This document shows, in pieces, positions 3,440 through 56,000 of a stretch of 64,000 nt of DNA. Source of the DNA: an uncultured Bacilli bacterium (GTDB lineage Bacteria; Bacillota_I; Bacilli_A; RF39; UBA660); assembly GCA_934167665.1 (NCBI GenBank), contig CAKPLN010000005.1, positions 33,414 through 97,413 on the forward strand, in the 5' to 3' direction. Position 1 is the first letter of the stretch, and every line of letters begins with the position of its first letter. The notes beneath the pieces were generated by a model that saw only the letters and a list, made by a program, of their open reading frames with translations, did not search any database and was not told the DNA's origin. The position numbers and the translations under genes are program-made.

Positions 3440-3620
3440 TAAAAAACTTCCAGAACAATATAAGGACGAAATAAATCCGCGGTTCCACCTTACTTATTCT
3501 AGAAGAATCATCTCTTGTCTATACTGCTAACGGTTTTCCAAGCCGGTCATCGCACTTATAACTACAATATACTAGTCTTTTTTAAAGATGTCAACATTAA
3601 GTTAATATTTATATATTTAA
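3440..3620 (-). promoter_or_regulatory. T-box riboswitch leader (probable Gly specifier GGC) for the 268-aa/glyQS operon
   Basis: The minus-strand transcript contains AAGUAAGGUGGAACCGCGG (the T-box consensus AAUUAGGGUGGUACCGCG) at about 3476-3492. A U-rich tract follows. accGGCuug lies upstream at about 3540. Confidence 0.65.
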
Positions 3621-3690
3621 TTTTTATAAGTTTTAAAATACAACAAAATTTTATCAAAAGAACTAAAACATAAAAACTCAAATAAATCAA

Positions 3691-4440
3691 TTACACACTT
3701 AACTGATTAATCCTTTTAATAAACTCCTTACTTTTTAAATATATTCCAGTATACTTATCATAATATTGTTCTAAAAACATTCCAATTTCTTTATTAACTT
3801 CATTAGATACTTCTAACTTAGTAATATTTTTAACATCAACATAATAAAACAATCTAATCATCTTAATAGTCTTTTCACTAACTATACCTTCATTATGATA
3901 ACAATTCCTACAAACGTATCCACCCATATCAGCAGAAATAGTAACAATCTCCTTATCACTACCACAATTACTACAAAAATCAAGACATGGAGAAACACCT
4001 AAATAAGTAAGTAATTTTACTTCTAAAATATTAGTAAGTGATACTGGACTAAATCCATCTTCTAATTTAAGTAATACGGAAGAAAATAAATCAAAAATAT
4101 CTGCATCATTATTTTCTCTCACAACTTGTAAAACTAAATCTATCATAAAAGATGCATAACTTACCTTTTCTAAGTCCATTACTATATTAGAAAACGAACT
4201 AATCAAATCAACACCAATTAAAGTAGATAGACCATTTTCTTTATAATATACATGAAACGTCCCATAAACTAACTTTCTACTAACACCACGCAATTTACTT
4301 TTTATGTTTCGACATCCTTTAGACATAACTCCAATCAAGCCATATTCCTTAGTTAAAACATTTAAAATTTTACTAGATTCACTATAATTAGTTTCACTTA
4401 AAACAATACCATCAAAACTTTCGATTTTCAAAACAATCAC
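3691..4440 (-). CDS. recO: DNA repair protein RecO
   Basis: 249 aa with a C-terminal CxxC...CxxC zinc motif (CSNCGS ... CRNCY). Sits in the conserved era-recO-glyQS neighbourhood. Confidence 0.8.
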   Translation of the reverse strand: MIVLKIESFDGIVLSETNYSESSKILNVLTKEYGLIGVMSKGCRNIKSKLRGVSRKLVYGTFHVYYKENGLSTLIGVDLISSFSNIVMDLEKVSYASFMIDLVLQVVRENNDADIFDLFSSVLLKLEDGFSPVSLTNILEVKLLTYLGVSPCLDFCSNCGSDKEIVTISADMGGYVCRNCYHNEGIVSEKTIKMIRLFYYVDVKNITKLEVSNEVNKEIGMFLEQYYDKYTGIYLKSKEFIKRINQLSV

Positions 4441-4585: not shown

Positions 4586-5476
4586 TTATTCATCCTCTTC
4601 TTTTAAGCCAAGTTCTAAGAAGTATTTTTCTTGATCTCGCCAATTTTTTAAAGTTTTAACATAAGTTTCTAAAAATACTTTTTTTCCTAAAAATTGTTCC
4701 ATATCATGTCTTGCTCTTGATCCAATCTCTTTTAGCATAGCACCATTTTTACCAATAATTATTTTTTTCAAATTATCACGATCAACAACAATTAAAACCT
4801 GAATATGAACAATATTTTCATCTTCTTCATAGTTTTCTACATAACAAGTAACCGTATGTGGAATCTCATCATGAGTAAGCATCATTACTTTTTCTCTAAC
4901 AAGTTCCCCCATAATAAAACGTGTTGTAACATTAGTTAATTCATCTTCAGAATAAATAGCTTCCATCTCTGGTAAATTCTTCTTTATACAGCTAATCAAG
5001 ACATCAACATTATTTTTTTCTAAAGCCGAAATAGGTATAATTTCTGCAAAATCATATAATTCTTTTAATTTAGAAATTTCTTCTAATAAAATCTCTTTAT
5101 TTTTAACTTTATCTATTTTATTTAGAAGTAAAAATACAGGTACTCCTTTATCTTTTATTTTATTAAGAACAAATAAATCTCCTTGTCCAAAACCTTTAGA
5201 AATATCTACTAAAAATAAAATAATATCTACTCCATCTGTAGAATTATAAGCTTTCTTATTTAAAAGTGTACCTAATTTATGAGTTGGTTTATGAATACCA
5301 GGCGTATCAACAAAAATAATTTGTGAGTCATCATCATTATAAATACCTTGAATAATATTTCTAGTAGTACCACTAACATCAGAAGTAATAGCTAACTTCA
5401 TTCCAAGCAAACTATTAAGTAAAGTACTCTTTCCTACGTTCGGTCTACCAACCAAACTAACAAATCCACATCTCAT
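4586..5476 (-). CDS. era: GTPase Era
   Basis: G1 motif GRPNVGKSTL, DTPG, NKID and a C-terminal KH domain; 296 aa. Confidence 0.9.
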   Translation of the reverse strand: MRCGFVSLVGRPNVGKSTLLNSLLGMKLAITSDVSGTTRNIIQGIYNDDDSQIIFVDTPGIHKPTHKLGTLLNKKAYNSTDGVDIILFLVDISKGFGQGDLFVLNKIKDKGVPVFLLLNKIDKVKNKEILLEEISKLKELYDFAEIIPISALEKNNVDVLISCIKKNLPEMEAIYSEDELTNVTTRFIMGELVREKVMMLTHDEIPHTVTCYVENYEEDENIVHIQVLIVVDRDNLKKIIIGKNGAMLKEIGSRARHDMEQFLGKKVFLETYVKTLKNWRDQEKYFLELGLKEEDE

Positions 5477-5862
5477 TACTTTAAATCCTCACTGCCAAAA
5501 GGATAAGGACATAACTCTTCAACTGTATGTTCAACATAACGTCCGTCTGTAGCAAAACATCTAATAATAGCCGTTTTATCAAAGAATTCAGTAATAACTT
5601 GTCTACAAATAAAACAAGGCATACCAATATCACCACTAGAAACCATAATGTTTAACTCTTTAAACTGACCCTTTTTGTATCCAGCACTAACAGCACTAAC
5701 TATAGCTGATCTTTCAGCACAAATTCCAGCTCCATAACTCGCATTCTCAACATTAACGCCACAAAATTCTCTACCATCATCCATTACCAAAACAGCTGAA
5801 ACAGCATAATTAGAATATGGAGAATAACTATTTTTATGTAATTGTAATAATTTTTCTTTCAT
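5476..5862 (-). CDS. cdd: cytidine deaminase
   Basis: 128 aa with zinc-ligand motifs CAERSA and PCFICRQ. Confidence 0.85.
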   Translation of the reverse strand: MKEKLLQLHKNSYSPYSNYAVSAVLVMDDGREFCGVNVENASYGAGICAERSAIVSAVSAGYKKGQFKELNIMVSSGDIGMPCFICRQVITEFFDKTAIIRCFATDGRYVEHTVEELCPYPFGSEDLK

Positions 5863-8873: not shown

Positions 8874-9785
8874 TTATTTATTAACAGAATCAACGTATGT
8901 CTTAACCAATGTCTTAGCTTCTTCTTTTGAATAATCTGCATTATTATTAGCAGCCTTCTCAATATTATTACATTCTTGTAAAAATCTATTATAACTATCA
9001 GAACTATCAAGCGTACTAGTAAATGCTAAACTAATATCTTTTAAATTACCATTTAATCTACTATTTACTAAAACCCCTCTAAAAGTATCATCTTTATATA
9101 ATGGTTCAACTATATCAGTAATTATATTATTAGTTGCTAAAGATAATGTATAGGATGGATCTAATTCTCTACAAATAGAAGCTATTACATCATCATGAGG
9201 TAAATCATCAGCAAATTTCTCTGTAGAACGAACCATATCAACAACCTGTAATCCATTAATAGCTTCTTCCAAACCTAAAACTTCAGTTTTTCTAGAATCA
9301 AAATACTCAACACATAACCCCATTCTCGCAACATAACTACCTTTCTTCTTTAGTACCGATTGATGTAAAGAACTAATAATATGATTCATCTGATGAATAA
9401 CACTATTAACTAAAACAGGCATTGGAGTTGAAGTTGAAACATAAATATTTCTTGTAAATTTAAAATGTCCTTTTTTTAACCCATTAGTAGCATCAGAAGC
9501 ATAAACTGTTCCTGGACAATGATTAACTAATTTTAAAACTACATCTTCTGGTAAACTATATTTTGTAGAAACATACCTAACAAGATCACGGCACTCAATA
9601 AAATTAGCTTTTAAGAAAGCCATATATACTTCATCAAAATGTTCACTTCCATAATAAGTTACTAAAATAGCAAATACTAGTGTTTTAATATCCGTTAAGC
9701 TGTCATCCTCTTTTTTTACATGATTTAACTGTTCAACCATTGTTCTAGAAACTTTTAAAAGCTGACTAACATCATTAATTTGCAT
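8874..9785 (-). CDS. hypothetical protein (303 aa)
   Basis: Intact ORF with its own upstream region; no motif recognised. Confidence 0.45.
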   Translation of the reverse strand: MQINDVSQLLKVSRTMVEQLNHVKKEDDSLTDIKTLVFAILVTYYGSEHFDEVYMAFLKANFIECRDLVRYVSTKYSLPEDVVLKLVNHCPGTVYASDATNGLKKGHFKFTRNIYVSTSTPMPVLVNSVIHQMNHIISSLHQSVLKKKGSYVARMGLCVEYFDSRKTEVLGLEEAINGLQVVDMVRSTEKFADDLPHDDVIASICRELDPSYTLSLATNNIITDIVEPLYKDDTFRGVLVNSRLNGNLKDISLAFTSTLDSSDSYNRFLQECNNIEKAANNNADYSKEEAKTLVKTYVDSVNK

Positions 9786-9848: not shown

Positions 9849-9878
9849 TAAAAAAAATAGAGATTAATAATCTCTATT
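9849..9878 (-). terminator. rho-independent terminator overlapping the rpsU stop codon
   Basis: AAUAGAGAUUAUUAAUCUCUAUU hairpin followed by a U8 tract on the minus transcript. Confidence 0.6.
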
Positions 9879-10067
9879 ACTAGCACGATTTCTCTTTTGA
9901 GAATTCTTAATTCCTTCTTTTTTAGCAGCTCTTCTTCTAACCCCTGGTTTATCGTAAGCTTCTCTTTTTCTACATTCTGAAGGGACACCATCTCTTGCTA
10001 CTTTCTGCTTAAATTTTCTTAGCGCCTGGTCAAGATTACCTCTAACAGTTACTTTAGTCGCCATCAT
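9864..10067 (-). CDS. rpsU: 30S ribosomal protein S21
   Basis: 67 aa and basic, with the S21 signature LDQALRKFKQKVARDGV...KREAYDKPGVRRR. Confidence 0.85.
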   Translation of the reverse strand: MMATKVTVRGNLDQALRKFKQKVARDGVPSECRKREAYDKPGVRRRAAKKEGIKNSQKRNRASNRDY

Positions 10068-10293
10068 TATCCCTCCCTTCGTTTTTAACTACAATGAATT
10101 ATAACAAAAGTTTTATTAGTTTTCAACAATTTTTTCCGTTTTTTTTCTTAAATTAAAGCATTTTCATACAAAATTCGCAAATTTTCACCAATTTCAATAC
10201 CAAAAGAATATAAATATTTAAATATTAAAGCTAATATAGGAATCATTAAAAGACCACATATAATTAAAATTGGCTTTTTATACTTTATAAAAA

Positions 10294-10464
10294 CTATTTT
10301 AAAGGACATAAACTATCATCTACAATTCTTCTTATAGCTGAGCCAGTACTTTTACCAGCGTCATATAAAATTTTAATCAAATTAACCATACTTGATAATA
10401 TAGTTCCTGTTATAGTAGTACCACCATACACATTTTTTAAATCATCATCTTCTATATTTCTCAA
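10294..10464 (-). CDS. double-glycine-leader bacteriocin-like peptide B (56 aa, TTG start)
   Basis: Not in the ORF track. Translation is (M)RNIEDDDLKNVYGG|TTITGTILSSMVNLIKILYDAGKSTGSAIRRIVDDSLCPLK. The leader has hydrophobics at -4, -7 and -12 and acidic residues at -8 to -11. GGAGGTG lies 8 nt upstream. The TTG start overlaps the stop of peptide A (TTGA). Confidence 0.5.
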   Translation of the reverse strand: MRNIEDDDLKNVYGGTTITGTILSSMVNLIKILYDAGKSTGSAIRRIVDDSLCPLK

Positions 10465-10598
10465 CCATTACACCTCCCTGGATTAGTAAAACCTTCTAAT
10501 ACTCCGGATAAAAAAACAACTATCGCTGAAACCGCAATACCAGTCCATACTGATCCACCAGTAATTACCTTCAATTCACTATTATCTAAACTTCTCAC
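10461..10598 (-). CDS. double-glycine-leader bacteriocin-like peptide A (45 aa, GTG start)
   Basis: Not in the ORF track. Translation is (M)RSLDNSELKVITGG|SVWTGIAVSAIVVFLSGVLEGFTNPGRCNG. The leader fits the LSxxELxxIxGG consensus closely. A GGAAGGAG RBS lies 5 nt upstream. The GTG overlaps the stop of the upstream 140-aa gene (GTGA). Confidence 0.6.
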   Translation of the reverse strand: MRSLDNSELKVITGGSVWTGIAVSAIVVFLSGVLEGFTNPGRCNG

Positions 10599-11017
10599 AA
10601 AATCTCCTTCCATACTAATTTAAAAATTTCAATAAAACCAATCTTTCTATCTAAAAAAACTAAATCAACAACATCATTTTCCTTCATCTTCTTCGTAGGA
10701 AAACTAATATAAACCAAATTATAAACCGTATTATTCCTCTTTATAGCACCCAACATTACCTCATTTATAGAATACTCATATCTAACATCATCAACATAAA
10801 GTATAGAATTTTTATATAAAATTTGAAGTTCACTATCAGAAACAACTGCCTCTACTAAAGAGTCCTTAGCTACAACTCCAGTAATTAAAAAATAACTATT
10901 AATCTTATAAAGAAAAGCCATAATAACACTAAAAAGTACCAATATTAAAAATAGTCCAACAACTATAAAAAGTCCTAACTTCTTTTCATAATTTCTTAAT
11001 CTCACTAATTTTACCAT
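10595..11017 (-). CDS. small membrane-anchored accessory protein of the bacteriocin operon (140 aa)
   Basis: N-terminal TM helix. It overlaps the ABC gene end and the peptide A start, so translational coupling is likely. Confidence 0.45.
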   Translation of the reverse strand: MVKLVRLRNYEKKLGLFIVVGLFLILVLFSVIMAFLYKINSYFLITGVVAKDSLVEAVVSDSELQILYKNSILYVDDVRYEYSINEVMLGAIKRNNTVYNLVYISFPTKKMKENDVVDLVFLDRKIGFIEIFKLVWKEIL

Positions 11018-13064
11018 CCTTCAACTTTAATATTCGGTTAAATAACTTATTTTCACTAAACCTATGACTAATAACTATAACCGTTTTTCCACTAAGATAA
11101 GTAAACATTTTCCTCATAATAAGCTTTGTCTTTTCAGAATCTATTTGACTAAAAACCTCATCAAAAATATAAATATCTCCATCATTAACTAAAGATCTTG
11201 CCAAAATTATTCTTTGTCTTTCCCCATTACTAAGATTACTACCATTTTCTTCTAATAATTGTTGATAACCTAAATCCTTAGAAATAATATCATCAACTCC
11301 AGTAATCTCTGCAATCTCTAAAAATTTATCTTTTGCTATATCTCTTCCTAAAACAATATTATTATAGATTGTATCAGTAAATAATGTTTCTAAACTGCTT
11401 ACATAAACAATATTTCTTCTTATTACATCCAAATGATAATGATTAATATCAATATTATTAATTGATACATAACCAAAAGGTACCTCAATATATTTCATCA
11501 AAATCTTCATGAGTGTACTTTTCCCACTACCACTACTGCCAGTCAATAAAATCCTCTCACCACAAGAAATCTCAAATGACAGATTAGTAAATAAAACTTT
11601 ACTATATGCAGTATAACTCAAATTATTAAACCTAATTTCACCAACTAATTTACAAAAAGAGTAATAATAATTTCCATTAAACTTCTCACAATCAATTGTA
11701 AATAACTCTTCAATCCTCTCATATGCTAATTTAAAATCTGTAAAACTGCCAATAAAAGTAAGAAGCCCATTAAAACTAAGCAAAAAATAATTAAAAACAC
11801 TTTGATAAACAAGTAAATTTCCCAGACTAATTTTTGATATAACTACCAAATAACTTCCATAGCCTAAAATAATAGTAACTAATAAATCATCTATAATATG
11901 CTTATAATTAGAAAAACAATTAGAAAAAAATACCAAAGAATAATTTCTTTCCAACAATTTTTTATACTTGAGTGCAAAAACATCAAATAACCTTTTTTCT
12001 AAATGTCTATTTTTTAAAGTTTCAGCACTAGATAATGCTTGTACTAAATCCGAATTAACTAAATCACTACTAAATTTTACTCTGGAAATATACTTTTTAT
12101 TAATCCTATCAAACACAATCTGACACATTAACATAACTATAGAAAACAAAAATATTAAAAGAAAAAGTCTCTTATTTAGTCTAAATAGTACAAAAGAAAA
12201 AACAATTAAACTTATAAAATCAGTGACAAAGAAACAACAAGCTTCAATAAGAAAAGACTTAACAGTATTTAAATCCTTAAATCGTGAAATTACTTCACCA
12301 GTTGTTCTATTTTTATAATATAAATATGGAAGTAGAAGAATATGATTATAAGTCTTAAAAGTAATTAAACTATCCATTAAATTACTACATTTTATTATTA
12401 AAATACCCCTTAACAAACTAGCCAATTCTCTAAAAATATATATTAGAAGAAGAACTGTACTAATCAAAATAATTGGTTTAGTTAAATGGTATTTTAAAGA
12501 AAATTCCAAAAGATATTTAAAATGGAAAGACGTAATTATTTGAAATGAAAATAAAATCATTGATAAAAGTAAAATCATTAATATCATTGCCTTGTATTTA
12601 AAAATAAATTCCCTCATAACTTTAACAATAATCTTTTTTTGTGACATAACAGGCAACTGTTTATATGGTTTAAGTAATATATACTTAGAACTAGACATTA
12701 ATTTAAACTCAGCTATAGATAAACTCCTCTTCCCCTTAGCTGGATCCATAACTAAAACTCTTTTCTTATCAATATCTATATCATATATTACAACAAAATG
12801 TTTATAGCTATTATTTATTACTACATGAGCAAGACAAGGTAAGTTATTCTTTTCTATTTTTAGCAAGTCTCCCTCAACACCAACTGCAGTAAAGCCAATT
12901 TTTTTAGCCGCTTCAATCAAATTATACGCCGAAACCCCAATCTTACTAGTATTTGTTATCTCTCTCAATAATTCTTTTGATATCTCTCCCCCATAATATC
13001 TAGTTACTGATAACAAACAACAAACACCACAATCTTTGGTACCATCTTGTAAAACTATCTTCAT
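10986..13064 (-). CDS. bacteriocin-processing ABC transporter with N-terminal C39 peptidase domain (ComA/LagD family)
   Basis: 692 aa. C39 catalytic Cys in GTKDCGVCCLL, a His region, a 6-TM domain, Walker A GSSGSGKST, signature LSNGERQRIILARS and Walker B IYIFDE. Confidence 0.9.
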   Translation of the reverse strand: MKIVLQDGTKDCGVCCLLSVTRYYGGEISKELLREITNTSKIGVSAYNLIEAAKKIGFTAVGVEGDLLKIEKNNLPCLAHVVINNSYKHFVVIYDIDIDKKRVLVMDPAKGKRSLSIAEFKLMSSSKYILLKPYKQLPVMSQKKIIVKVMREFIFKYKAMILMILLLSMILFSFQIITSFHFKYLLEFSLKYHLTKPIILISTVLLLIYIFRELASLLRGILIIKCSNLMDSLITFKTYNHILLLPYLYYKNRTTGEVISRFKDLNTVKSFLIEACCFFVTDFISLIVFSFVLFRLNKRLFLLIFLFSIVMLMCQIVFDRINKKYISRVKFSSDLVNSDLVQALSSAETLKNRHLEKRLFDVFALKYKKLLERNYSLVFFSNCFSNYKHIIDDLLVTIILGYGSYLVVISKISLGNLLVYQSVFNYFLLSFNGLLTFIGSFTDFKLAYERIEELFTIDCEKFNGNYYYSFCKLVGEIRFNNLSYTAYSKVLFTNLSFEISCGERILLTGSSGSGKSTLMKILMKYIEVPFGYVSINNIDINHYHLDVIRRNIVYVSSLETLFTDTIYNNIVLGRDIAKDKFLEIAEITGVDDIISKDLGYQQLLEENGSNLSNGERQRIILARSLVNDGDIYIFDEVFSQIDSEKTKLIMRKMFTYLSGKTVIVISHRFSENKLFNRILKLKDGKISEIKKL

Positions 13065-13121
13065 AAGAGCCTTATTTCTTCCACCTCCTACTTTATTATT
13101 CTAAAAAACTGTTACTTTCCC

Positions 13122-13300
13122 AGAACAAAAGACAAATTTTTAATTTGTCGCTTTGGTCGTCACCGATCAAAATTCCTACTTCACTGATAAAGTACCCTTT
13201 ATTCTCCATAGGCTTAAATTCCGATAGTCGCTACCGTACTCATTTTATTTTATTACTATCTATTCTTAAACTAACTTTCTTTGATAATGCATTCTTAATC
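13122..13300 (-). ncRNA. putative TnpB omega-RNA (reRNA) scaffold: tnpB 3' end plus right end
   Basis: Inferred from known TnpB biology. The roughly 145-bp right-end segment is almost identical in the copy at 58112-58255, which fits selection on an RNA scaffold. A guide would come from the flank just below 13122. Confidence 0.35.
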
Positions 13301-14426
13301 CTTCAAACATAATATTTATACTAGCATTTATATCTCGATCATTTTCGCATCCACACTTACTACATATCCATTCTCTAACATTTAAATTATCTGTCTCTTT
13401 CGTTGTGTTGTCACAATGACTACATTTCTTACTGCTTGGAAAATATGTATCTACTTGATAATAATATTTTCCTATTAGACTACACTTCCATTTGAGCTGC
13501 TGACATATCCTATTGAAACTGGCATCTAAAATATTTTTGGCTAGATTATGCTTATGTGTCATCTCTTGTATATTTAACTTTTCACTAACTATAATATCAT
13601 GTTCTTTAACGAGTCTATTTACAATATTAATTATATTATGTTTTCTACTATTTTTAATTTTACTATGAATTCTAGCGATTTTTTCTTTTGTCTTATAATA
13701 ATTATTACTACTCTTTATTTGCCTTGCTAGTTTTTTCTGTAATTTTTTTAATCTCTTTTCTCTTTTTAAAATTTCTTTTGGATTAGCATATTTTTCCCCA
13801 TCACTTGTCACAACTAAATCTTTTATTCCTAAGTCTATTCCAACTATATTTTGGGGAATAACGTTACTACTAGGTACAACAAACTCTTTTTCTTCAACTA
13901 CTACACTCACATAATACTTATTAGTTGTTTCTTTCTCAATAGTAGCATTAATAATCCTCCCACTTATTTTTTTTAAATTTCTATAACCTCTTATATCAAC
14001 TAGCCCAATTTTAGGTAATTTGATTTTTCTATTTACTAAATCTAATTCTATATTACTGTATTCACTATTTTTATATGTACTTTTAATGCATGGAGTTCTA
14101 TAGCTTTGCTTATTAAATTTACTCTTAAATTGAGGATAATTACCACGTTTTGAATAATAGTTTTTAAAGGCGTCTTCTAAATTAAAAACAGTACACCTTA
14201 AACTACAAGAATCTACTTCTTTTAAAAATGGATAATCATTGTATAAGTTTTTTATTTCTCCACACATGTCAAAAGCCTTTATAAGACCATTCTTTATACA
14301 CTTGTCTAGAAAATAGTTATAAATAAATCTAACACAACCAAAAGTTTTAGTTAAGAGCTGTTTTTGATAACTATTAGGATACAGTCTAAACTTATAGGCT
14401 TTATACATGCAATACACCTCCATCAT
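13266..14426 (-). CDS. tnpB: RNA-guided endonuclease TnpB (IS605 OrfB family transposase accessory protein)
   Basis: 386 aa. RuvC-I GIDLGIKDLVVTSDG, RuvC-II IIVSEKLNIQEM, a zinc finger CSHCDN...CSKCGC and RuvC-III NDRDINASINI. Confidence 0.9.
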   Translation of the reverse strand: MMEVYCMYKAYKFRLYPNSYQKQLLTKTFGCVRFIYNYFLDKCIKNGLIKAFDMCGEIKNLYNDYPFLKEVDSCSLRCTVFNLEDAFKNYYSKRGNYPQFKSKFNKQSYRTPCIKSTYKNSEYSNIELDLVNRKIKLPKIGLVDIRGYRNLKKISGRIINATIEKETTNKYYVSVVVEEKEFVVPSSNVIPQNIVGIDLGIKDLVVTSDGEKYANPKEILKREKRLKKLQKKLARQIKSSNNYYKTKEKIARIHSKIKNSRKHNIINIVNRLVKEHDIIVSEKLNIQEMTHKHNLAKNILDASFNRICQQLKWKCSLIGKYYYQVDTYFPSSKKCSHCDNTTKETDNLNVREWICSKCGCENDRDINASINIMFEGLRMHYQRKLV

Positions 14427-14743
14427 CTTGACTTACTATAATAAATTACAAACATATGTTTGTTAATATTGATGTTACTATTTAATAAGAAAATTTCTTA
14501 TAAGTTAAAAATATCACAACTTGGATCCGCCCCAGGGGTTATAATTGGCGAACATCTTGGATTTTTAAATTTTATTAAAAAGAAAAGTACTCTTAAGATG
14601 GAATGTCCATACTGTGGTGGTACTATGTTACCTATTGATTTAAAAAATTAGAGTTTTTAACTTTAATCTTTTTGGTATGGACTTGATTCTATCGAGTCCT
14701 TTTTTTGCTGAATAATAACCTGAACGCACTTTCCTTATATATA

Positions 14744-14773
14744 AAAAAAAGACTATTTTTTTAGTCTTTTAAT
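14744..14773. terminator. bidirectional terminator hairpin between the IS left end and the transglutaminase-like gene
   Basis: AAAAAAAAGACTAtttttttTAGTCTTTT. A second hairpin at about 14684-14712 (GGACTtgattctatcgAGTCC then T7) faces the plus strand. Confidence 0.5.
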
Positions 14774-14892
14774 ATTTTAAATATATTGGAAGTGGTTCAA
14801 AGAAAATATTTTATTTTGAGAGCAAATATTGTAATTAAATTTCACTTCCACTATCAATATATCACAATAGAAAAATGTAAACAATAACTTTA

Positions 14893-15783
14893 CTATATTT
14901 TTTCAAAAAGTTCACTATCTTCTATAGCAGGATACCACTCAGGGTGATCCATAATATATCCTTCCATCTTTTTTTGCTTTAAGCCATCATAATAATAGCT
15001 ACTACTCATATAGATTGAAGACGCAACTGTTGAATCAAAGAAGTAATATTTACCATTATATTCAACAACATTCCACATATGTCTTCCACTAGTATTACCA
15101 GTTACACCATAAGACTTAATACCAATATTTTGAAAAATAACCTGACTAGCTTTAGCAAAACCAGCACATACAGCTTTTTTTCTCATAAAAACACTATAAA
15201 TAGATTGATTCTTTGATGAAGAAGTAAAAGTTAAATCATAGTCAGTATTTTTACCAACCCAATCATAAACATACTTAATCTTCTCCCTATCATCCATATC
15301 CTTAGTATCGTACTTAATATCAGCAATTATCCTCTTTATTCTAGCCTCAGCAATCTTTTGTGTAACAGGGATTTTAACAGCATATTCAAAATTAACCCTA
15401 ATAGTTGAATCTTTATATAAAGCACTATAGTTAGAATAAGACATAAGTTCAGGATGATCTACTAAAATAGCATCATTAACAATACCCAGTAAAGAAAAGC
15501 AATCAGAATAATCCTTACACTGAAAATCATCTAAGCCAAAACTAATACTTCTCTTATTATCCTTAACATTATAAAAAAACAAATCATATAATTTTTTCTC
15601 TCTACTATTTAAAAAGTTATTATAAACATAACTATCAGACATATATAAATCATTAATATAATACTTATTATTTTTATCAATTAGTAAATTATTATCTACA
15701 GTTCTAGTAAAATTAAAATAAATATAAAAAGTAAATAATATAAGAAGAATAGTTAAAAATTTATTTTTCTTAAAGAAAAGCAT
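14893..15783 (-). CDS. transglutaminase-like cysteine peptidase family protein, membrane-anchored
   Basis: N-terminal TM helix and the Cys/His/Asp triad context CAGFAKAS...GRHMWNVVEY...FFDST. Confidence 0.6.
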   Translation of the reverse strand: MLFFKKNKFLTILLILFTFYIYFNFTRTVDNNLLIDKNNKYYINDLYMSDSYVYNNFLNSREKKLYDLFFYNVKDNKRSISFGLDDFQCKDYSDCFSLLGIVNDAILVDHPELMSYSNYSALYKDSTIRVNFEYAVKIPVTQKIAEARIKRIIADIKYDTKDMDDREKIKYVYDWVGKNTDYDLTFTSSSKNQSIYSVFMRKKAVCAGFAKASQVIFQNIGIKSYGVTGNTSGRHMWNVVEYNGKYYFFDSTVASSIYMSSSYYYDGLKQKKMEGYIMDHPEWYPAIEDSELFEKI

Positions 15784-21393: not shown

Positions 21394-23996
21394 CTAACGT
21401 TTGTTACGGATAATAACTATACCAGAACCGCCAGAAGCGCCACAATTACCATAATAATCTCCACCGCCGCCTCCACCAGTGTTAGCTGTACCGCTTGCAG
21501 GGCCAGAACGACAGTAGCCACAATTATCGGATGTTCCACCTTCACCAGCTGAGCATCCTCGGCCTCCGCCACCGTTGCCACCAGAGCCGCCGCCCCAGCC
21601 GCCTCCGCCGCCTCCGCCGCCGTAGAATTTACTTCCAGAACCAAATTCACGTACACCAGAGCCACCAGAGCCACCACCATCAGGACTACGGCTTCCACCT
21701 CTTCCTGTACCAGCACCACCTGCACCATTACCGTATTGACCGGCATTGCCGCCTGATGCACTCCAACCAAAAGCAGTAGTTGTTCCGCCGTTGTTTCTAG
21801 GAGAGCCACCGTTTCCTATACTAATATAATATGATTGAGAAGTTGAAACATTTGTCGTGAAGGTTTGTGTATAACCGCCACCACCTCCACCTTGGCGACC
21901 ACCTCCGCCGCCTCCAACTAGGAAAACATTAATTCCATCAGAAGCCTTATTTAAATCACCAAAGGTTAAAGTACCACTAGTTAAAAGTCTTATTTTCCAA
22001 TTTCCAGACCAATTACTAGTATTAGATATCCTATTATCATTATCATCCACAATTTCATATCTTCCAGTATAAGAGAACTTAGGTATTGAACCTAGACTGA
22101 CACTAAATCTTCCTGAATTACAACTATTAGTATTTCCAGCAGCATCTTTTACATAACCATACCAAGTAATACCACTAGTTGAACCTTGAGTTGCAGATGA
22201 TGTTCCATTATAACTTGCACTACTACTCGTAGTTAATCCATAGGAAGCTACACCAGATAAACTATCACTCGTACTTATACTAACTGTAACATTAGACGTA
22301 TATGCATTACCAGAACCCGAACCAGATAAACTAATCCTACAACTAGGTGCCGTTTTATCTAGCTTAATACTTGTACTAGCTGAACTAGAACAATTGCCTG
22401 CATAATCACATGCCCTAGCATAATAAGTATATGAGCCTTCACTAGAAATAGAAAGATTAACACTTTTATCTATATTAGCAGAAGCTTGTGAACCAGAAAT
22501 AGTAGTCCAACTTGAGTTATTAGTTGAGTATTGGATACTTGCTAATCCAGAAGTCTTATCATTTGATCTTACCGATATATTATAGTTAGAATTGAACCAT
22601 TTATTGTTATTAGTATTTGTAATTGTAGGAGTACTTGGAACGTCCTTATCAATCTTTACTACTGTCTGATTTGAAGCAGAACAATTACCTGCATAATCAC
22701 AAGCTCTAAAATAATAAGAATAAGCACCAGCATTAGAAGCTGTAACACTAGATGTCTTAGAAGTGTTAGCAGAAGCTTGTGAACCAGAGATTGTAGACCA
22801 ATTTTTACTATCTGTTGAATATTGAATACTAGCTAAACCAGACAAATTATCTTTTGAAGTAGCAGTAATCTGATAATTTTTATTAACCCATTTATTGCTA
22901 TTTGGATTACTAACAGTTGGAGCACTTGGTAAAGTCTTATCAATCATGATAGTATTTTTAGCCGGCTCTGAACAATTATCAGCATAGTCACATGCCCTTA
23001 TCTCAACTAACTCATTTCGTTCGGCCGTAAACGGCGTCGTAATAAATGAATTACCAGCCGAGTTATTATATTTAACCCACTTATTAGCACTATTTGGATA
23101 ACGATATTCATAAAACATTACACCAGAATGTTCATCATTAGATGACACTCCAATTACATATTTATTAGTATTAACATAGCTAGCATTAGCCCATACTCCA
23201 TTGTAACTATTAGTTAAAACTGGCGTTACAGGATTAGTATTATCAAATTTTAACTTATCATCTGACCAGACATCACTAGCAAAACGGCCACGAACATCAA
23301 TTACATCATCACCATCTACAAAGAAATAGTATTCGCCATTTAATCCACTTTCAGTAATTGTATATGTTAATTCTTTCTCGCCATTGTCATTTCTAAAATT
23401 ATATTCTTTAAAATTAGTTGGTTCCTGATTCCTTACAGAACTCCATCCATAACGAATGCTTGTATTTGCATTAAGCCCTTCTTGAGCAGTAATTTTAAAT
23501 GTTATGTTCTTAGACTTAGACCAATTATTATTACCACCTACATCTTTAACAGTAACCTTAATAGTCGGCAAAGCAGAAACCGTATCATTACACCTTGAAG
23601 CTGTTTGATTATAAACAACATTATCATCTTTTGTACAGTATAAAGCTATCTCATACTTATACTTACCACCATCCCTTACAACATGAACATATGACTTATT
23701 ATCATCACACACTACGCCATCAGTAATATAATTTTTAATTAATGACTTAGAGCGCAAATCTCCATATGATATGTCATAACAGCCATCACCCGTAATACCA
23801 AATAAATCATTGGAATATGAATCAATATATAGCTTACCAGCATCTTCCATTCTATCAGCATAAGTTTCAAACTTTTTATTACGATTTCTAGCCTGTAACT
23901 GTTGAACACCTGGAAGAGCCAACACAGTTATAATTCCAATTATTGTAATAACAACTAAAAGTTCTACTAAAGTAAATCCCTTTTTCTTATTCTTCA
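21394..23996 (-). CDS. giant pilin-like protein with type IV prepilin N-terminus, three tandem RACDYAGNCS modules and a Gly-rich C-terminal tail
   Basis: The probable start is MKNKKKG|FTLVELLVVITIIGIITVLA (class III signal with Glu at +5). There are about 95-aa repeats. The C-terminal roughly 190 aa is Gly/Ser/Asn-rich (GGGGGGRQGGGGGG...GGGGGGGGWGGGSGG) and encoded by a GC-rich stretch. Confidence 0.6.
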
Positions 23997-24071
23997 TATA
24001 ATCCCTATATCTCCTATCATTTCTAACTATCATCTTTATCAATATCAACTGCTACATCATCATTTACCATA

Positions 24072-50030: not shown

Positions 50031-53000
50031 CTATTTAGTATTAACAATAACTAAATGTTCTTTTTTATCATTTACTAGTTTTATAATACCACTTTTAATA
50101 ATACTGTTATCAACACTTACTTTATAATCATCAGATCTTATTACCTCGATATTATAAACTGTATCCATATAGTTATAAACCATCTTATAACCATCCCAAG
50201 CAATTGGCATATTAGGACATATCTTCAAAGTATCATTATGTTTCTTTAGACCTAATATTTCTGTAACTCCTACATTATAAAACCAACCTGCAGAACCAGT
50301 ATACCAAGTCCAACCACCTCGTGCTGGAAACTCTAATGATGAATAAATATCAGCCGCAATAACATAAGGTTCAACTTTATAAATATTAACATCAGAACTA
50401 TTAAGTGTTCTTTCAATAGGATTAATCATCTGATAACGCTTATAAGCTGTATCATAGTAACCAGCCTTAATTAAAGCCATAACATACCAAGAGACAGCAT
50501 GTGTATATTGACCACCATTTTCTCTAATTCCCTTAGCATAATTCATAATATAACCAGGATTGTTTAATGATGTCGAAAAAGCCGGTGTTAAAAGTTTAAC
50601 AATTTTTTTATCTTTATCAACCAAAAGTTTCTCTACCGCATCAAGTGCTTTTAAAGCTCTATCTCTTGGAGCAACACCACTAAGAACAGCAAAACTCTGA
50701 GAAATTAAATCAATCTTACATTCAGTATTTTCATGACTTCCTAACTTATCACCATTATCAAAGAAAGCTCTTAAATAATACTCTCCATCCCATGTTTTCT
50801 TATTCAAATTATCTTTTAGATTTTCATTAAAATCAACATAACTACTAATATCAAAGTCCTTATCATAATGTTTCATTATTTTTACAAACTTCTCGATTAT
50901 ATCATAAAGGAAGAATCCTAGCCAAACGCTTTCTCCTTTGCCCTTGATTCCAACTTTATTCATACCATCATTCCAGTCACCACCACCCATTAGAGGTATC
51001 TTATGACGGCCTAAAGAATCAATCGCTAAAGATAAAGATTTTAAACAATGATCAAGTAATGAATCAACTGGTTCCAAATAGTTAAATACAATACCTTTTT
51101 CTTGTTCGTAAGTTCCTAATTTATCCCCAGTAATATATGGTACTTTTTCTTTCAAAATACTATAGTCACCAGTTACATCTAAGTAATTACATGTTGCTAA
51201 AACCAACCATAAATAATCATCTTTATAGCGACTTCTAAGTCCAAATCTATTAGCTTCATGCCACCAATGTAAGACATCTCCCTCTTCAAATTGATGAGAA
51301 GCATTAATAAGAATTTGTCTTCTTGTAACATCAGGATGAACTAAAACTATATTCATCGCATCTTGTAATTGATCTCTATAACCAAATGCTCCACTAACTT
51401 GATAAAAACCAGCCTTTGCTAAAATTCTAGATGAAATAGTCTGATATAAATACCACCCATTTAACATATAGTTTAAGCTCTTATCAGGAGACTTTACCTC
51501 TACAACAGATAATTCTTTATCCCAATAACTTTTAACATTTCTAAGTTCTCTCTTAGCAATAGAAACATCAGTATACTTACTTACAAGACTATCTCCTAAA
51601 GCCTCATCCCTACTACTACATAAAACAAAAACTATAGACTTCTCCTCAGAAGGAGCAAGTGTAATCTTATTAGCAATACTCTTAACAAGAATACGATCAC
51701 TAACACAAGATGAAATAGCCTCACTAGATGACATATAAACACAAACATCACCATAATTAATACTATAAACATTACGTAATTTTAAATAATTTTTATCATC
51801 TATAAATTCTGATAAAATATGACGAGCTGTCTTCTCCTCAAAATTACCAAAAGTAGGATTAATCCAATAATTAACATCAACATCTAAAGTCCTATCAGTA
51901 ACATTAGTAAGATTAACTAAATATAATTTTACCGGATCATCTACAGCTACAAATTCACAAATTTCTTTTTTCAAATCTTTACTACAAGACTCTAAAATAC
52001 TATAACCAAAGCCATGAGTACATTTGCTAGGATCAAAAGTTTTACCATTAAATGTAAATCCCTCTGATCTATCATTAACAACAATATCATTAGTCCAAGA
52101 AGTAATTTTAAATTCCGAAGAATTATAAGCAAATGTATAGCCACAACCATTATTAGTAACAATAGTACCAAAGTTTTTATTAGCAATTACATTACTCCAA
52201 GGAGTTGGTGTATTTTTATTATAAATAACATATTCTCTACCATTATTTTTAAATCCACCAAAGCCATTATCAAAAACTAACTTTTCATCATTTGAAGATG
52301 ACACATTATCTTCTAAAGCATATTTCTCATATAAACTAATCTTATTATTTTTCTGTAACTCTTCAACAGCTTCCTTAAAAGAAACATGGTCTTTAATTAT
52401 AAATCTTAATCTTGGAACTATATCAAATAAACTCTTCTCTTCTCTTGATAAAGTGCTACCATCAATAACATAAATAGCTCCAGGTGTATGATAAAAACTA
52501 TTTAAGGAATACATTCTATATTTTTCATCTTCTATTTCTTTATTAATAATTTTTTTATACTGTTCATTTTCATTATTAATAATCACAACATCAACGAATA
52601 TAGAATTATTTTTATAATACTCAAATGCTTTTAAAATATCAAAGATAAATGGTAAATCACTTATATCACTAATATTAGCTAAAATAATAGGTCTATCTCC
52701 ACTTATTCCAAACTTCCACAAACCATTTTGTGCTAAACAGTTTTTACGTAATAAATCCATTCTTTCTCTACTAACAGATATTTTAGTAGTTTGATATAAG
52801 TAGTTAAGCATAATATTATAAAGTCTCATATCATCTCCACTTATACCAAGTGTTTTAGTATTAACAATATTCATTAAAGCTGAAACTCTAAAAGCTCTTT
52901 CGATATCATCTAAATTATTATAAGAATAAATTATATCCATAATTTGTTCTCTACTACGTCCAAAGCCCATAATCAAATAAACAACTGTATCCCCATTAGC

Positions 53001-56000
53001 AGGAACAACAATCTTATTTCTAAGACTCATTACAGGGTCTAAATTATCTCCACTATAATTGCTTAAATCATGATGTAAGGCACTAGGACAATTTGAGGTA
53101 TATCCTCGACCAATAAAATTAGCTCTTTCAGTCTCATAAGTAAATTCATCAAGAGGATTATCAATAAGCAAACGATTAACCATATAACTATTAACCGTAT
53201 TTTCTCCTCTTCCCTTACGTCTCATAATAAGAGAATTAGTATTAATATCATACTCACTAGAAATAAACATATTATTAAATACTCTATGAGAAACATCATC
53301 CATATTATCAGATAATATAACCTCAGTATAAGTAGTAAGCTCTAGCGTTTTATCTTGATTACTATTATTTTTAAAAGTAACTTTTCTAATTTCCGCATGA
53401 TGATCCTTAGTTACTACTATTTCTGTTTTAGTCATGATTTTATCATCAGTACGTAAATATTTAATCATATCAGAAGCAAAAACAACTTCATAATTATCAG
53501 CCTTAATATTAACAGGCGCATAAGTATTAGACCAAACCTTGTCATTACCAAGATCTCTAATATACATAAATAATCCATAATCTTGTTCTGTAACTTTTCT
53601 ATATCTATTTAATTGTAATGTTCTATATCTAGAAAAACTATTACCTCTATCATTCATAAGTAAACAATACTTTTTATTAGATAAAACAGAAACCTCAGGC
53701 ATATAAGAAATGTAATTAAAAGCTCTAATATCATTTTCAATCTTTTCTTTTTGATAATCATACTTTTTATAATTAGCCATTTTCATATCAATACTTGTCT
53801 TAATTTGAACTTTTTCCTTTAATAAAATATCAAAAGTTCTAATATTAACATTATCATGAAAATAATTTTGAATAGCTCCATTCTTTAAATAATTAGTAAG
53901 AGATGCTAAAATCATTCCTTGATGATGAGCAAAATAAGCTAAGACAACGTCTTTATTATCATAATCATATGCTTCATAAAAACCATACTTACCATACATA
54001 TCTAGTCTTTTAAATTTATTCATGTTTTCATAAACACTATCTGGAAACAACTCCATTGCCATGATAGATGAATAAGGTGATAAAACAATTCTATTATCTT
54101 TATCCTCTTTAGCTTTTAAGTATGGAGTTGAAAAAGCTCTATATTTATAATTTAGGGAATTATCAAGTTCATCATAGGCACTTTCACCAATTCCCCAAGG
54201 TAAATCTTTAGAAACACCCGCAACATAACTTTTCTGACAAAAATAAGCAAAATGATAAGATTCATCAAGTAACGTATTAGGATAATTCTTCATAAATAAC
54301 AACGGCATATAGTATTCAAAAGAAGTACCAGACCAAGAAATAAGTCCTTTATGTCCCTTATACGTTGTTAAAGACTTATCTAAACAAAACCAATGTTTAG
54401 AAGGAACATCTCCCATGCAAATAGCAATATAGCCAACTAATCTAGATTCACTAGCAAACTTATTATAATTATAAATTGATAACTTCTCTTCAGATTCATC
54501 GTAACCAATACTAAATACATTTTTCTTAGTATATAACTTTTTAAAATTAGTGTTTTTTATCAAACGATCAACAACTTTAATTAAATTGCTATCATCATTC
54601 TTCTTTAAAAATTCACCTACTACAATAAGAGCTGCTACAAAATTACCAGAATCAACAGTTGATACAAAGCGTGGATTAAAAACTTTCTTTGTCTTTATAT
54701 CATACCAATTATATAAATGTCCATTCCACTTTTCTAACCCCTCAACAGTATGTAAAATCTCACTCAATAACTTAATAGCCCTATCTTTATCAATAAATTC
54801 CATCTCACAAGCACAAACAACACTGGTAAGTGAATAACCAATAGCAGTTGGTGAAGTTCTTAAATCTAACTTTTGTTCACGATTTTCTTGATAATTATCA
54901 GGTATTAAATAAGAATACTCTTCTTTTAAATTATCTTCAAAGTATTTCCAAGTCTTCCTTGCTACTTCTACAACATCAGAAATTTCACTACTCTTTAGCT
55001 CTACTTGTTCATGTTTAATATTAGAACTTACATAATATAAAATAAAAGGTGCACTAAAGAATATCGCAGAAATAATAATCGCTAAAATATTCTTACCTAA
55101 AATACCAATAACTAGAAGTAAAACAGCAAGTACAATATTAAATGAAAAATTCCTAATATAACTTTTTAAATCTTCCTTAACTGTTTTTTCAACTTCTTCA
55201 GCTGTAATCCAATTAAGTAAATTCTTATGAGATATAGTTAAACGATAAATACTTCTAAAAAATGCATCCATATAAAGTTTAGTATAAAAAGGAAGAGTTG
55301 CTAAAACGATATAAGATCTAAGTAAAACACTACGTCCACCATAAAATAAATTTTTATAGTAAACATTTAACTTTCCATTACTCTTTACAATTTTACTACG
55401 TAAAAATATTATTACTGGAACAGCTATTTCTAAAACAACAAGTCCAACCCACCATAAAGGATTAACTTTACTAAAGAAAATACCACAAATAAGTGAAAGT
55501 AACAACATTGGATATAAAAACATTCTTATGATATTATCAAATATTTTGAATCTTCCCAATAAATTAATTGGATTTTTAACAAGCTTGCCTTGTTTATTTC
55601 TAACTTTATTAAAAAGCCAGCCAATAATTTGAACATCTCCTCTTGCCCAACGATGATGTCTAGTAATATCTATTAAAAATTTAGATGGGAAATCATCAAT
55701 AAGTTCAATATCACACACATATCCACATCTTAAATAATTTCCTTCCAATAAATCATGAGACAAAATCAAATCATCAGGAAAAGTCTTGTCTAAAACCTTT
55801 TGAAAGATTCTCAAATCATAAATTCCCTTACCGACAAAGCTTCCCTCACCAAAAGAGTCTTGATAAACATTAGGAACAATTGCTGAATAAGTATCAAATC
55901 CCCCAATACCAGCAAAGATTTGACTATACAAACTCCTATTAGTAGCCTCAATATCCACACCAACTCTAGGCTGCATTAAAGCATAGCCATTAACAACTTT

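Follow-up and report, generated by a model that had tools for sequence, protein, structure and literature searches.

A putative class IIb-like two-peptide cassette with its own C39-ABC exporter beside rpsU in uncultured Bacilli

Class IIb bacteriocin loci are defined by two adjacent peptide genes and an immunity gene, and an ATP-binding cassette (ABC) transporter and an accessory protein are possibly encoded in the same operon (PMC2850506). The peptidase-containing ABC transporters (PCATs) of Gram-positive bacteria need at most one accessory protein and serve most often to export bacteriocins (PMC7018657). PCATs also export pheromones. Here we describe a five-gene cassette in a 64,000-nucleotide stretch of DNA (contig CAKPLN010000005.1 of assembly GCA_934167665.1, positions 33,414 to 97,413), hereafter the window, from an uncultured Bacilli bacterium. 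The cassette encodes an ABC exporter with a C39 peptidase domain, an accessory membrane protein, two prepeptides (A and B) with double-glycine (GG) leaders, and a small membrane protein that we call ORF3 (Table 1). An earlier reading of the same letters, referred to below as the original prediction, had proposed a two-peptide bacteriocin locus at this place. Our analysis leads us to a similar view: the cassette probably makes a two-peptide, membrane-active product of class IIb-like type, which would be cleaved and exported by the PCAT together with its unusually small accessory protein, with ORF3 providing immunity. We put the probability of this reading, as judged from sequence, at roughly 0.6.

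The locus matches the genetic definition of class IIb (PMC2850506) because it is a coupled operon of two GG-leader peptides, a C39-ABC transporter and an accessory protein. The two prepeptide genes are adjacent in a single operon, here and in all of the related loci described below. The leader of each peptide is 15 residues long, the length range of the class being 15-30 residues. The transporter is a dedicated one, which in class IIb systems may come with or without an accessory protein, and GxxxG, for which AxxxA or SxxxS may stand in this class, is found in both peptides. The exporter has the three domains of a PCAT with the catalytic Cys, His and Asp. The accessory protein does not have the signature of the HlyD-type membrane-fusion proteins (MFPs), which consists of an alpha-hairpin, a lipoyl domain and a beta-barrel, and the mature peptides are not cationic, a property that is typical of class IIb without being strictly defining.

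The two small open reading frames (ORFs) that encode the peptides lie exactly where the original prediction had placed them, with the start codons and the GTGA and TTGA overlaps that it had described. These are 4-nt overlaps of start and stop codons, and peptides A and B share 4 nt; the ABC and accessory genes share 20-32 nt, and peptide B and ORF3 share 16 nt. That the peptides were unannotated was true of the ORF list used at the time, but public assemblies of the organism call genes of 45, 56 and 53 amino acids (aa) in this region. The GTG start codon of peptide A is preceded by a Shine-Dalgarno sequence (GGAAGGAG, with a spacer of 5 nt), and the TTG start of peptide B has GGGAGGTG as its Shine-Dalgarno sequence. 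The frame of peptide A is also open from an upstream ATG at 10613. The accessory protein had been given a length of 140 aa; both the N-termini of its homologues and a ribosome-binding site favour the GTG start, so that 136 aa is the more likely length. Coding sequence and translation signals overlap at two places in the cassette. At 10461-10480 the Gly-Arg-Cys codons of peptide A supply the Shine-Dalgarno sequence of peptide B, and at 10300-10312 the ATG of ORF3 is formed within the Leu-Cys codons of peptide B.

The leaders of the peptides, MRSLDNSELKVITGG for A and (M)RNIEDDDLKNVYGG for B, are both hydrophobic at positions -4, -7 and -12 and acidic at -8. These leader features had been noted before and are borne out in the sequence and in the homologues, where -8 is often acidic. 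When the six-frame translation of the 64 kb was scanned with the strict pattern [LIVM]xxx[ED][LIVM]xx[LIVM]xGG, two matches were obtained, and these are peptides A and B. Among 49 A leaders and 44 B leaders, the GG, an I, V or L at -4, and an L or M at -7 are present in 100%; the leaders are variable save at -1, -2, -4, -7 and -12. The mature part of peptide A, SVWTGIAVSAIVVFLSGVLEGFTNPGRCNG, consists of 30 aa with a predicted mass of 3051.5 Da, a net charge of 0, a GVLEG motif and one Cys. It resembles a transmembrane (TM) helix, with a mean hydrophobicity of 0.71 and a moment of 0.14, and its C-terminal end is NPGRCNG. The mature part of peptide B, TTITGTILSSMVNLIKILYDAGKSTGSAIRRIVDDSLCPLK, has 41 aa, a predicted mass of 4366.1 Da, a net charge of +2 and, again, one Cys. 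It is amphipathic (hydrophobic moment up to 0.65) and contains AGKSTGS, which is an AGxxxGS motif, an RR patch and a C-terminal LCPLK. The predicted model of peptide B is all-helical with a break at the GG, at a low confidence (predicted local distance difference test, pLDDT, of 63).

The GxxxG-type motif and the single Cys that had been pointed out in each mature peptide are retained by the homologues. GxxxG occurs in 40 of the 40 distinct mature A sequences, a count that is largely by construction because the pattern used for the metagenome search already fixed SGxxEG (NP and Cys lay outside the pattern), and in all 35 distinct mature B sequences. Exactly one Cys is found in 36 of 40 mature A and 35 of 35 mature B sequences. 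The consensus of mature A is W...F(L/I)SG(V/I)x(E/G)GxxNPxxC and that of mature B is IKxLxxAGxxxGSxxRR...CPL. As judged from sequence, the peptide leaders fit the GG consensus and the mature parts form new families. A sub-branch of peptide A in the metagenome loci (e.g., ISALGMIGIAALIIFISGVIEGITNPGGCDNRC) is without the N-terminal Trp and has a second C-terminal Cys (...GGCDNRC or ...GRCNRC), which could make an intra-chain disulfide in place of an inter-chain one.

The exporter consists of an N-terminal C39 peptidase, a 6-TM domain and a nucleotide-binding domain, in agreement with the earlier identification of a C39-peptidase ABC transporter. The Pfam domains Peptidase_C39 (105 bits), ABC_membrane (87.5 bits) and ABC_tran (84.5 bits) were all matched above threshold. 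The protein aligns over its full length with PCAT1 (4RY2, E=7.7e-87) and with ComA (8HF4, E=9e-68). The C39 residues are Gln6, Cys12, His89 and Asp107; the last three, which form the intact catalytic set, align with those of PCAT1. The motifs DCG, HFVV and DP(A/G)KG align with both proteins, and the Walker motifs, signature and H-loop are also kept. No NCBIfam PCAT model gave a score that reached its cut-off; TIGR01193 gave 330 bits (cut-off 524) and NF045998 gave 307 (cut-off 500). An identical sequence is present on several other public contigs.

Unusual forms of the ABC gene were seen on three related contigs (related contigs carry L-numbers, L001 etc., as labels). In L023 (270-2349), a metagenome contig of the same species, the gene is split into ORFs of 250 aa and 382 aa and the other cassette genes are intact; the split marks a pseudogene or else stems from faulty assembly. 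In L013 (~3500-3720) and L014, the C39 N-terminus (...KVVNQDGIKDCGICC...) is intact and in frame, with no ATG, GTG or TTG after the preceding stop codon. An N-terminal truncation was considered for these two genes and rejected, as the C39 domain is in frame and only a canonical start is lacking; translation may begin there at a non-canonical codon, for example ATT or ATA.

The accessory protein is a single-pass protein with an N-terminal TM helix, a beta domain of ~90 residues and a C-terminal helix. Its AlphaFold model, made with the family alignment, has a pLDDT of 92.9 and places the TM helix at residues 2-36. A word-indexed homologue search yielded near-identical copies only. An exhaustive phmmer search widened the family to 159 cluster representatives (clustering at 50% identity). 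Their length is nearly always 125-145 aa, and the shorter entries are probably truncated. The alignments do not contain any conserved stretch of 7-10 columns. No Pfam family was consistently matched in 74 members, and families of HlyD type were matched by none of them. Of these 74, 15 gave weak matches to NCBIfam NF045999 (the MAG1140 family), the best with E=8.5e-7, and the window's own protein reached 11.9 bits against a cut-off of 35. A tblastn search of plasmids with the accessory protein gave no match. The model can be likened to the beta-barrel of MFPs. One interpretation is that the protein is a "mini membrane-fusion-protein" (mini-MFP), that is, the anchor and a single barrel of a helper of the ComB/LcnD/HlyD type, without the hairpin and lipoyl domains. 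We consider this interpretation moderately supported because the structure model and the gene linkage speak for it; the sequence gives it no support.

Related loci were retrieved by three routes. Peptide homologues were used in the first, and the word-indexed searches gave close relatives only. The second consisted of five look-ups that were based on the accessory protein, down to 22% accessory identity, and was independent of the peptides. In the third, the motif of peptide A led to 4 loci in GTDB genomes and 43 in metagenomes (rumen, sloth, human gut and others). The gene content of the 43 metagenome loci was determined by hidden Markov model (HMM) searches of stop-to-stop segments, and each part was counted only on contigs that extend far enough to show it. 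These loci have a constant order of ABC, accessory, A, B, ORF3 and rpsU: the ABC gene was present in 29 of 29, the accessory gene in 35 of 36, B in 36 of 37, ORF3 in 30 of 33, and rpsU downstream in 24 of 24. The cassette was also found in all five accessory-based look-ups and, in full, at all of the 10 distinct places where the window's exact ribosomal protein S21 sequence occurs, a retrieval that does not depend on the peptides. In all related contigs of sufficient length, rpsU is directly downstream of the cassette.

The peptide genes are conserved in a characteristic manner. In the more than 50 related contigs, the leaders diverge and the mature parts are held by strong purifying selection. 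The ratio of nonsynonymous to synonymous substitution rates (dN/dS), which is a rough estimate from four close species, in view of the small gene size and a nearly saturated dS, was 0.06-0.14 for mature A against 0.3-0.6 for the A leader, and 0.08-0.37 for mature B against 0.3-2 for the B leader. The corresponding values were 0.35-0.65 for ORF3, 0.55-0.74 for the accessory gene and ~0.02 for S21. In the 43 loci, the proteins were identical to those of the window to the extent of 41-77% (median 66%) for mature A and 45-60% (median 54%) for mature B, as compared with 44-56% (median 48%) for the ABC protein, 23-38% (median 31%) for the accessory protein and 24-51% (median 35%) for ORF3; S21 was 78-99% identical (median 91%). 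The combination of variable leaders and constrained mature parts leads us to conclude that the small ORFs are genuine genes and that, within the cassette, constraint is strongest on the mature peptides.

The original prediction had seen no obvious immunity gene after the peptides and had named a 32-aa ORF (10148-10246) as a weak candidate. That ORF proved to be the tail of ORF3, a conserved 53-aa ORF of putative immunity type that begins at the ATG at 10309 and lies directly 3' of peptide B in the 30 metagenome loci where it was found. The N-terminus of ORF3 (MSFKIVFIKYKKPILIICGLLMIPILALIFKYLYSFGIEIGENLRILYENALI) is basic, a single TM helix follows, and the tail is amphipathic and conserved. 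Its position, size and conservation make it a likely candidate for the immunity protein, a role that is predicted from sequence.

The cassette has its own promoter and leader. In the arrangement without the insertion described below, the promoter is followed by a structured leader and then by the intrinsic terminator, 45 nt before the ATG of the ABC gene. The outer stem of the leader, GGAAG.../...CTTCC, shows compensatory changes, and the loop region AAUAUUUGCUCUC is invariant. The element is positioned directly upstream of the ABC gene in L019 (~1401-1535), a contig of the same species, and was also seen in L003 (~5345-5490), L006 (~1165-1310) and L037 (~1356-1486); it was found in the closest species only. 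Searches of Rfam returned no match for the leader or for the right end of the insertion sequence (IS). The presence of a terminator suggests regulated read-through, and the leader could control the cassette by attenuation or as a small RNA.

In the window, a TnpB-only element of the IS200/IS605 type separates the leader from the ABC gene. Its boundaries were determined by comparison of filled sites (the window and L018) with the empty site in L019. The insertion moves the leader ~1.65 kb away from the ABC start, and all five ORFs stay intact. It is polymorphic among contigs of the same species: L001, L018 and L021 carry it, whereas L019 and L020 do not; the contigs without it have an intact 692-aa ABC gene. 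A GC-richer segment at 13121-13265, 3' of the tnpB stop codon, is probably the omega-RNA and right end. A deleted derivative of the element with the same ends is found upstream of the ABC gene in L013. On the plus strand, antisense within the left part of the element, a 63-aa ORF (14460-14651) has a CPYCGG zinc-ribbon-like motif, and L018 has a 59-aa gene there.

On one side the cassette is flanked by a transglutaminase-like gene, gerM, gerE and spoIIIAH, and on the other by rpsU, yqeY, yabP and yqfD. A 303-aa protein without a Pfam family (8874-9785, minus strand) is encoded between rpsU and yqeY throughout the clade. The host has ~27% GC and is walled and apparently spore-forming, with Ddl, a Mur ligase, DivIVA and SepF. 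Elsewhere in the window, an 884-aa, very large pseudopilin-like protein (21394-24048, minus strand) has an N-terminal N_methyl motif and no further Pfam domain. A 2,549-aa protein (50031-57680, minus strand) combines GH94 catalytic, supersandwich and glucoamylase-like domains; from its sequence it resembles a cyclic beta-1,2-glucan synthase/phosphorylase, an enzyme that one would rarely expect in a small Firmicute of low GC content.

Table 1. Features of the cassette and its surroundings, in positions of the window
Feature	Position	Strand	Remarks
Five-gene operon, translationally coupled	10148-13064	minus	order ABC, accessory, A, B, ORF3
ABC exporter (PCAT), 692 aa	10986-13064	minus	Pfam domains
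Accessory membrane protein	10595-11017	minus	140 aa from ATG 11017, or 136 aa from GTG 11005
Prepeptide A, 45 aa	10461-10598	minus	GTG start
Prepeptide B, 56 aa	10294-10464	minus	TTG start
ORF3, 53 aa	10148-10309	minus	ATG start at 10309
rpsU	9864-10067	minus	Pfam Ribosomal_S21; immediately downstream of cassette
rpsU promoter, sigma-70-type	10126-10098	minus	11/12 matches plus TG; strong, 3' of ORF3
Native promoter (extended -10, TGATATATT), ~115-nt structured leader and intrinsic terminator	14741-14893	minus	
IS200/IS605-type TnpB-only element, 1,620 bp	13121-14740	minus	between leader terminator and ABC gene
tnpB	13266-14426	minus	Pfam OrfB_IS605, Cas12f1-like_TNB, HTH_OrfB_IS605

On the established framework of genes, motifs, catalytic residues, conservation, selection and synteny, one could envision the following mechanism. 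By analogy with PCAT1 and ComA, the C39 domain would recognise the 15-residue GG leaders of A and B and cut after the GG, and the transporter would export the mature peptides. The ~136-aa accessory protein, to judge from gene linkage and fold, may serve on the outer face as a stripped-down helper of the ComB/LcnD type. Mature A, a neutral helix of TM length, and mature B, amphipathic with its RR patch, would pair at ~1:1 through GxxxG, and the resulting helix-helix complex, inserted in the membrane, would permeabilise sensitive cells. The single C-terminal Cys of each peptide might form an inter-peptide disulfide that locks the pair; we offer this as speculation, the hosts being presumably anaerobes. 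The single-pass ORF3 protein would protect the producer. Native expression might start at the promoter and proceed through the terminator-bearing leader by regulated read-through, and in the strain represented by the window the TnpB element intervenes.

Several observations weigh against the class IIb-like reading, and the first of them concern family membership. Neither peptide passed the threshold of a curated family in Pfam or NCBIfam. Peptide A came close in several cases: it scored 22.2-22.4 bits against Pfam PF10439 Bacteriocin_IIc, where the gathering threshold is 27.1, and 17.5 bits against NCBIfam TIGR03949 (lactobin A/cerein 7B), where the cut-off is 21.5, and it was also just below threshold on the lactococcin G models (LcnG-beta). 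Its scores were 17.2-17.4 bits for the ComC model of Pfam (cut-off 20.4) and 12.4 for BlpC (cut-off 70). Peptide B itself gave no match in Pfam or NCBIfam, including Bacteriocin_IIc and TIGR03949. Sub-threshold matches to Bacteriocin_IIc were obtained with 13 of 14 members of the A family and 3 of 12 of the B family; these are known by E-value, the individual bit scores not being listed, and the best, 2.8e-5, is barely better than that of the window's own peptide. The original prediction had proposed a search with GG-leader HMMs as a check, and formally that check failed, with A at 22.4 of 27.1 and 17.5 of 21.5 bits and B in no Pfam family. The class IIb assignment made there is partly supported: the gene set, the leaders, GxxxG and the intact exporter agree with it, but it misses the family thresholds. 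When the A and B alignments were run as profiles against the PDB, no bacteriocin was retrieved; the best matches, ankyrin repeats and ARX1, were treated as chance. A possible likeness of peptide B (YDAGKSTGSAIRR) to the C-terminus of plantaricin J was dropped, as no plantaricin chain was returned in the PDB profile search. The peptide strings were not found in a literature search, and tblastn of plasmids with peptide B gave no match.

A second group of unfavourable points concerns the character of the products and of their genes. Class II bacteriocins are typically cationic, and the mature peptides here are near-neutral, with charges of -2 to +1 (mode 0) for A and -1 to +3 (mode +1) for B. ORF3 matched no Pfam or NCBIfam model and belongs to no recognisable immunity family. 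A clear ribosome-binding site was not found for ORF3, and its translation is, for this reason, probably coupled to that of peptide B. Because the conservation of the Cys codons partly coincides with the translation signals that they contain, the local invariance may reflect these signals; the Cys is retained even in lineages where the overlaps differ (e.g., L010, L015 and L017). Conservation is higher in the mature peptides than in the exporter, the accessory protein and ORF3, and the cassette is fixed at a single site beside rpsU across a diverged clade. Such fixation together with conserved peptides is the opposite of the strain-variable, fast-evolving pattern that is usual for bacteriocin loci; the pneumococcal rtg locus, for example, is intact in 17% of strains.

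The fixation beside rpsU, the conservation of the peptides above that of the export machinery and their near-neutral charge give rise to an alternative reading that keeps the same biochemistry. The peptides might be a lineage-fixed exported pair with a self-directed role, be it sibling killing or cannibalism or a structural or regulatory membrane complex, which the PCAT merely delivers. We regard this as the main alternative, although clearly less probable than the class IIb-like reading. Sibling killing or cannibalism of this sort would be tied to sporulation or differentiation, with CibAB-CibC and Skf/Sdp as examples. CibAB-CibC of Streptococcus pneumoniae is a species-wide two-peptide bacteriocin with a small downstream immunity protein and is used against siblings; its export depends on ComAB, the genes of which lie elsewhere, and its expression is controlled by competence. 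The presence of the cassette at 10 of 10 places with the identical S21 gene and in all five accessory-based look-ups, the S21 gene downstream in 24 of 24 metagenome contigs with room, and the degree of conservation of the mature peptides are in line with a self-directed role. Conserved core-genome bacteriocins exist, however, and most of the loci were retrieved by way of cassette components, so that members of the clade without the cassette may exist. Sporulation and housekeeping neighbours (gerM, gerE, spoIIIAH, yabP and yqfD) would also fit, but this synteny may be coincidental. Although the terminator-bearing leader suggests conditional expression, no link of expression to any developmental regulator was seen, and in its genes the cassette corresponds exactly to a bacteriocin locus. 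A more specific form of the alternative, which we consider doubtful, is a clade-wide, vertically inherited module in which a 1:1 membrane heterodimer, possibly disulfide-locked (predicted 7415.6 Da), acts with ORF3 on the population or the envelope of the producer. Sporulation-linked sibling lysis or membrane remodelling could be examples of such an action, and delivery could be by the PCAT and a single-barrel mini-MFP helper of a hitherto unreported kind that Mycoplasma shares.

Another alternative is quorum sensing: peptide A, peptide B or both would be ComC/BlpC-type pheromones that leave the cell through the PCAT and are perceived by a kinase encoded elsewhere. PCATs do export pheromones, and peptide A has the weak, sub-threshold matches to ComC and BlpC mentioned above, which are due to its leader. 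However, the window's ORFs of 100 aa or more that were scanned or annotated include no histidine kinase, response regulator, LytTR or Rgg protein, and none was found in the related flanks. A kinase and regulator pair of this kind had been named beforehand as an observation that would speak for a pheromone; that none was found within this scope speaks against one. Furthermore, the mature parts of 30 and 41 aa are very hydrophobic or amphipathic with GxxxG, unlike known pheromones, and two co-conserved peptides with a small TM protein better suit a toxin-plus-immunity logic. We rejected the pheromone reading, which appears improbable to us, on the basis of the missing sensor and regulator and the character of the peptides. 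That the frames are fortuitous or decaying beside an orphan ABC gene, or that the IS has left the cassette non-functional in this strain, is suggested by the 1.6-kb TnpB element between the operon and its native promoter and leader, by the split ABC gene of L023 and by the lack of a clear Shine-Dalgarno sequence for ORF3, but is very improbable given five intact ORFs, an identical ABC protein on other public contigs, IS-free contigs of the same species in which the 692-aa ABC gene is intact, the strong purifying selection, the conservation across more than 50 loci, and a polymorphic insertion that shows no signs of decay and from which tnpB read-through or an IS-borne promoter could drive expression.

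If the class IIb-like reading is correct and the product is active, the cassette would represent a new family of two-peptide bacteriocins from uncultured low-GC Bacilli of gut and rumen, with an unusual chemistry of neutral peptides that carry one invariant Cys each. To our knowledge, no bacteriocin has been characterised from this group of uncultured Bacilli, and none came to light in this analysis. What is new at the level of genes is the two peptide families, for which no curated models exist; an accessory family outside Pfam, with what its model suggests is a reduced MFP-like fold and with a distant tie to the unstudied MAG1140 family of Mycoplasma; the clade-wide fixation beside rpsU; and the terminator-bearing leader. 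The traits that set the cassette apart most, namely this fixation, the near-neutral peptides, the miniature accessory protein and the IS insertion between leader and operon, were beyond the reach of the original prediction. At 3 kb and five genes, the predicted export and immunity module is compact, and its transfer to a heterologous host would be feasible. With its ~136 aa, the accessory protein gives an idea of how small the helper of a PCAT can become and offers a functional handle on MAG1140-like proteins of Mycoplasma. The retention at the side of rpsU, together with peptides that are more conserved than their exporter, raises the question of whether some "bacteriocin" loci are core physiological modules. 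If the self-directed module were the true reading, the peptides would be a new functional class of PCAT cargo and the accessory protein a new minimal type.

Compared with described systems, the export part of the cassette is closest to PCAT1 of Clostridium thermocellum (4RY2) and ComA of Streptococcus (8HF4), with which the exporter shares the C39, 6-TM and nucleotide-binding domains and the catalytic residues. It differs from them in that the sequence similarity is moderate and that the exporter is paired with a miniature accessory protein. Such a pairing is known from Mycoplasma, where a C39-ABC protein of NF045998 (Mbov_0121) occurs together with a ~126-140-aa protein of NF045999 (MAG1140). 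The window proteins score below the cut-offs of both models (307 of 500 and 11.9 of 35 bits) and are, thus, related to these families without being members. A literature search turned up Mbov_0121 in passing only and MAG1140 not at all, and no functional account was found. With regard to the peptides, A aligns with Bacteriocin_IIc and TIGR03949 over the leader and the glycine-rich hydrophobic core; the NPxxC tail at the C-terminus is particular to the A family, and B is not covered by these models.

The nearest described arrangement as a whole is that of lactococcin G (lagA/lagB; PMC2850506), which likewise has two adjacent GG-leader prepeptides with GxxxG in both. As in lactococcin G-type loci, a small membrane gene follows the peptides, and a C39-ABC transporter and one accessory protein are encoded in the same operon. 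The mature peptides, predicted to be helical and hydrophobic or amphipathic, are also like those of class IIb, with 30-41 aa here. They differ in having no detectable sequence relation to any characterised pair, in being near-neutral and in having one invariant Cys each. The accessory protein is ~136 aa long, whereas that of class IIb systems is an HlyD-type protein of ~450 aa, and the locus is fixed beside rpsU across the clade rather than strain-variable. The exporter genes come first in the window cassette. The original prediction had called this order the reverse of most characterised loci; the order itself stands, but it is a minor point, as single operons with the ABC and accessory genes are known, that of lactococcin G among them. 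The kind of system, GG-leader peptides of class IIb type exported by a PCAT, is already known, and the cassette beside rpsU would be a compact and clade-wide form of it.

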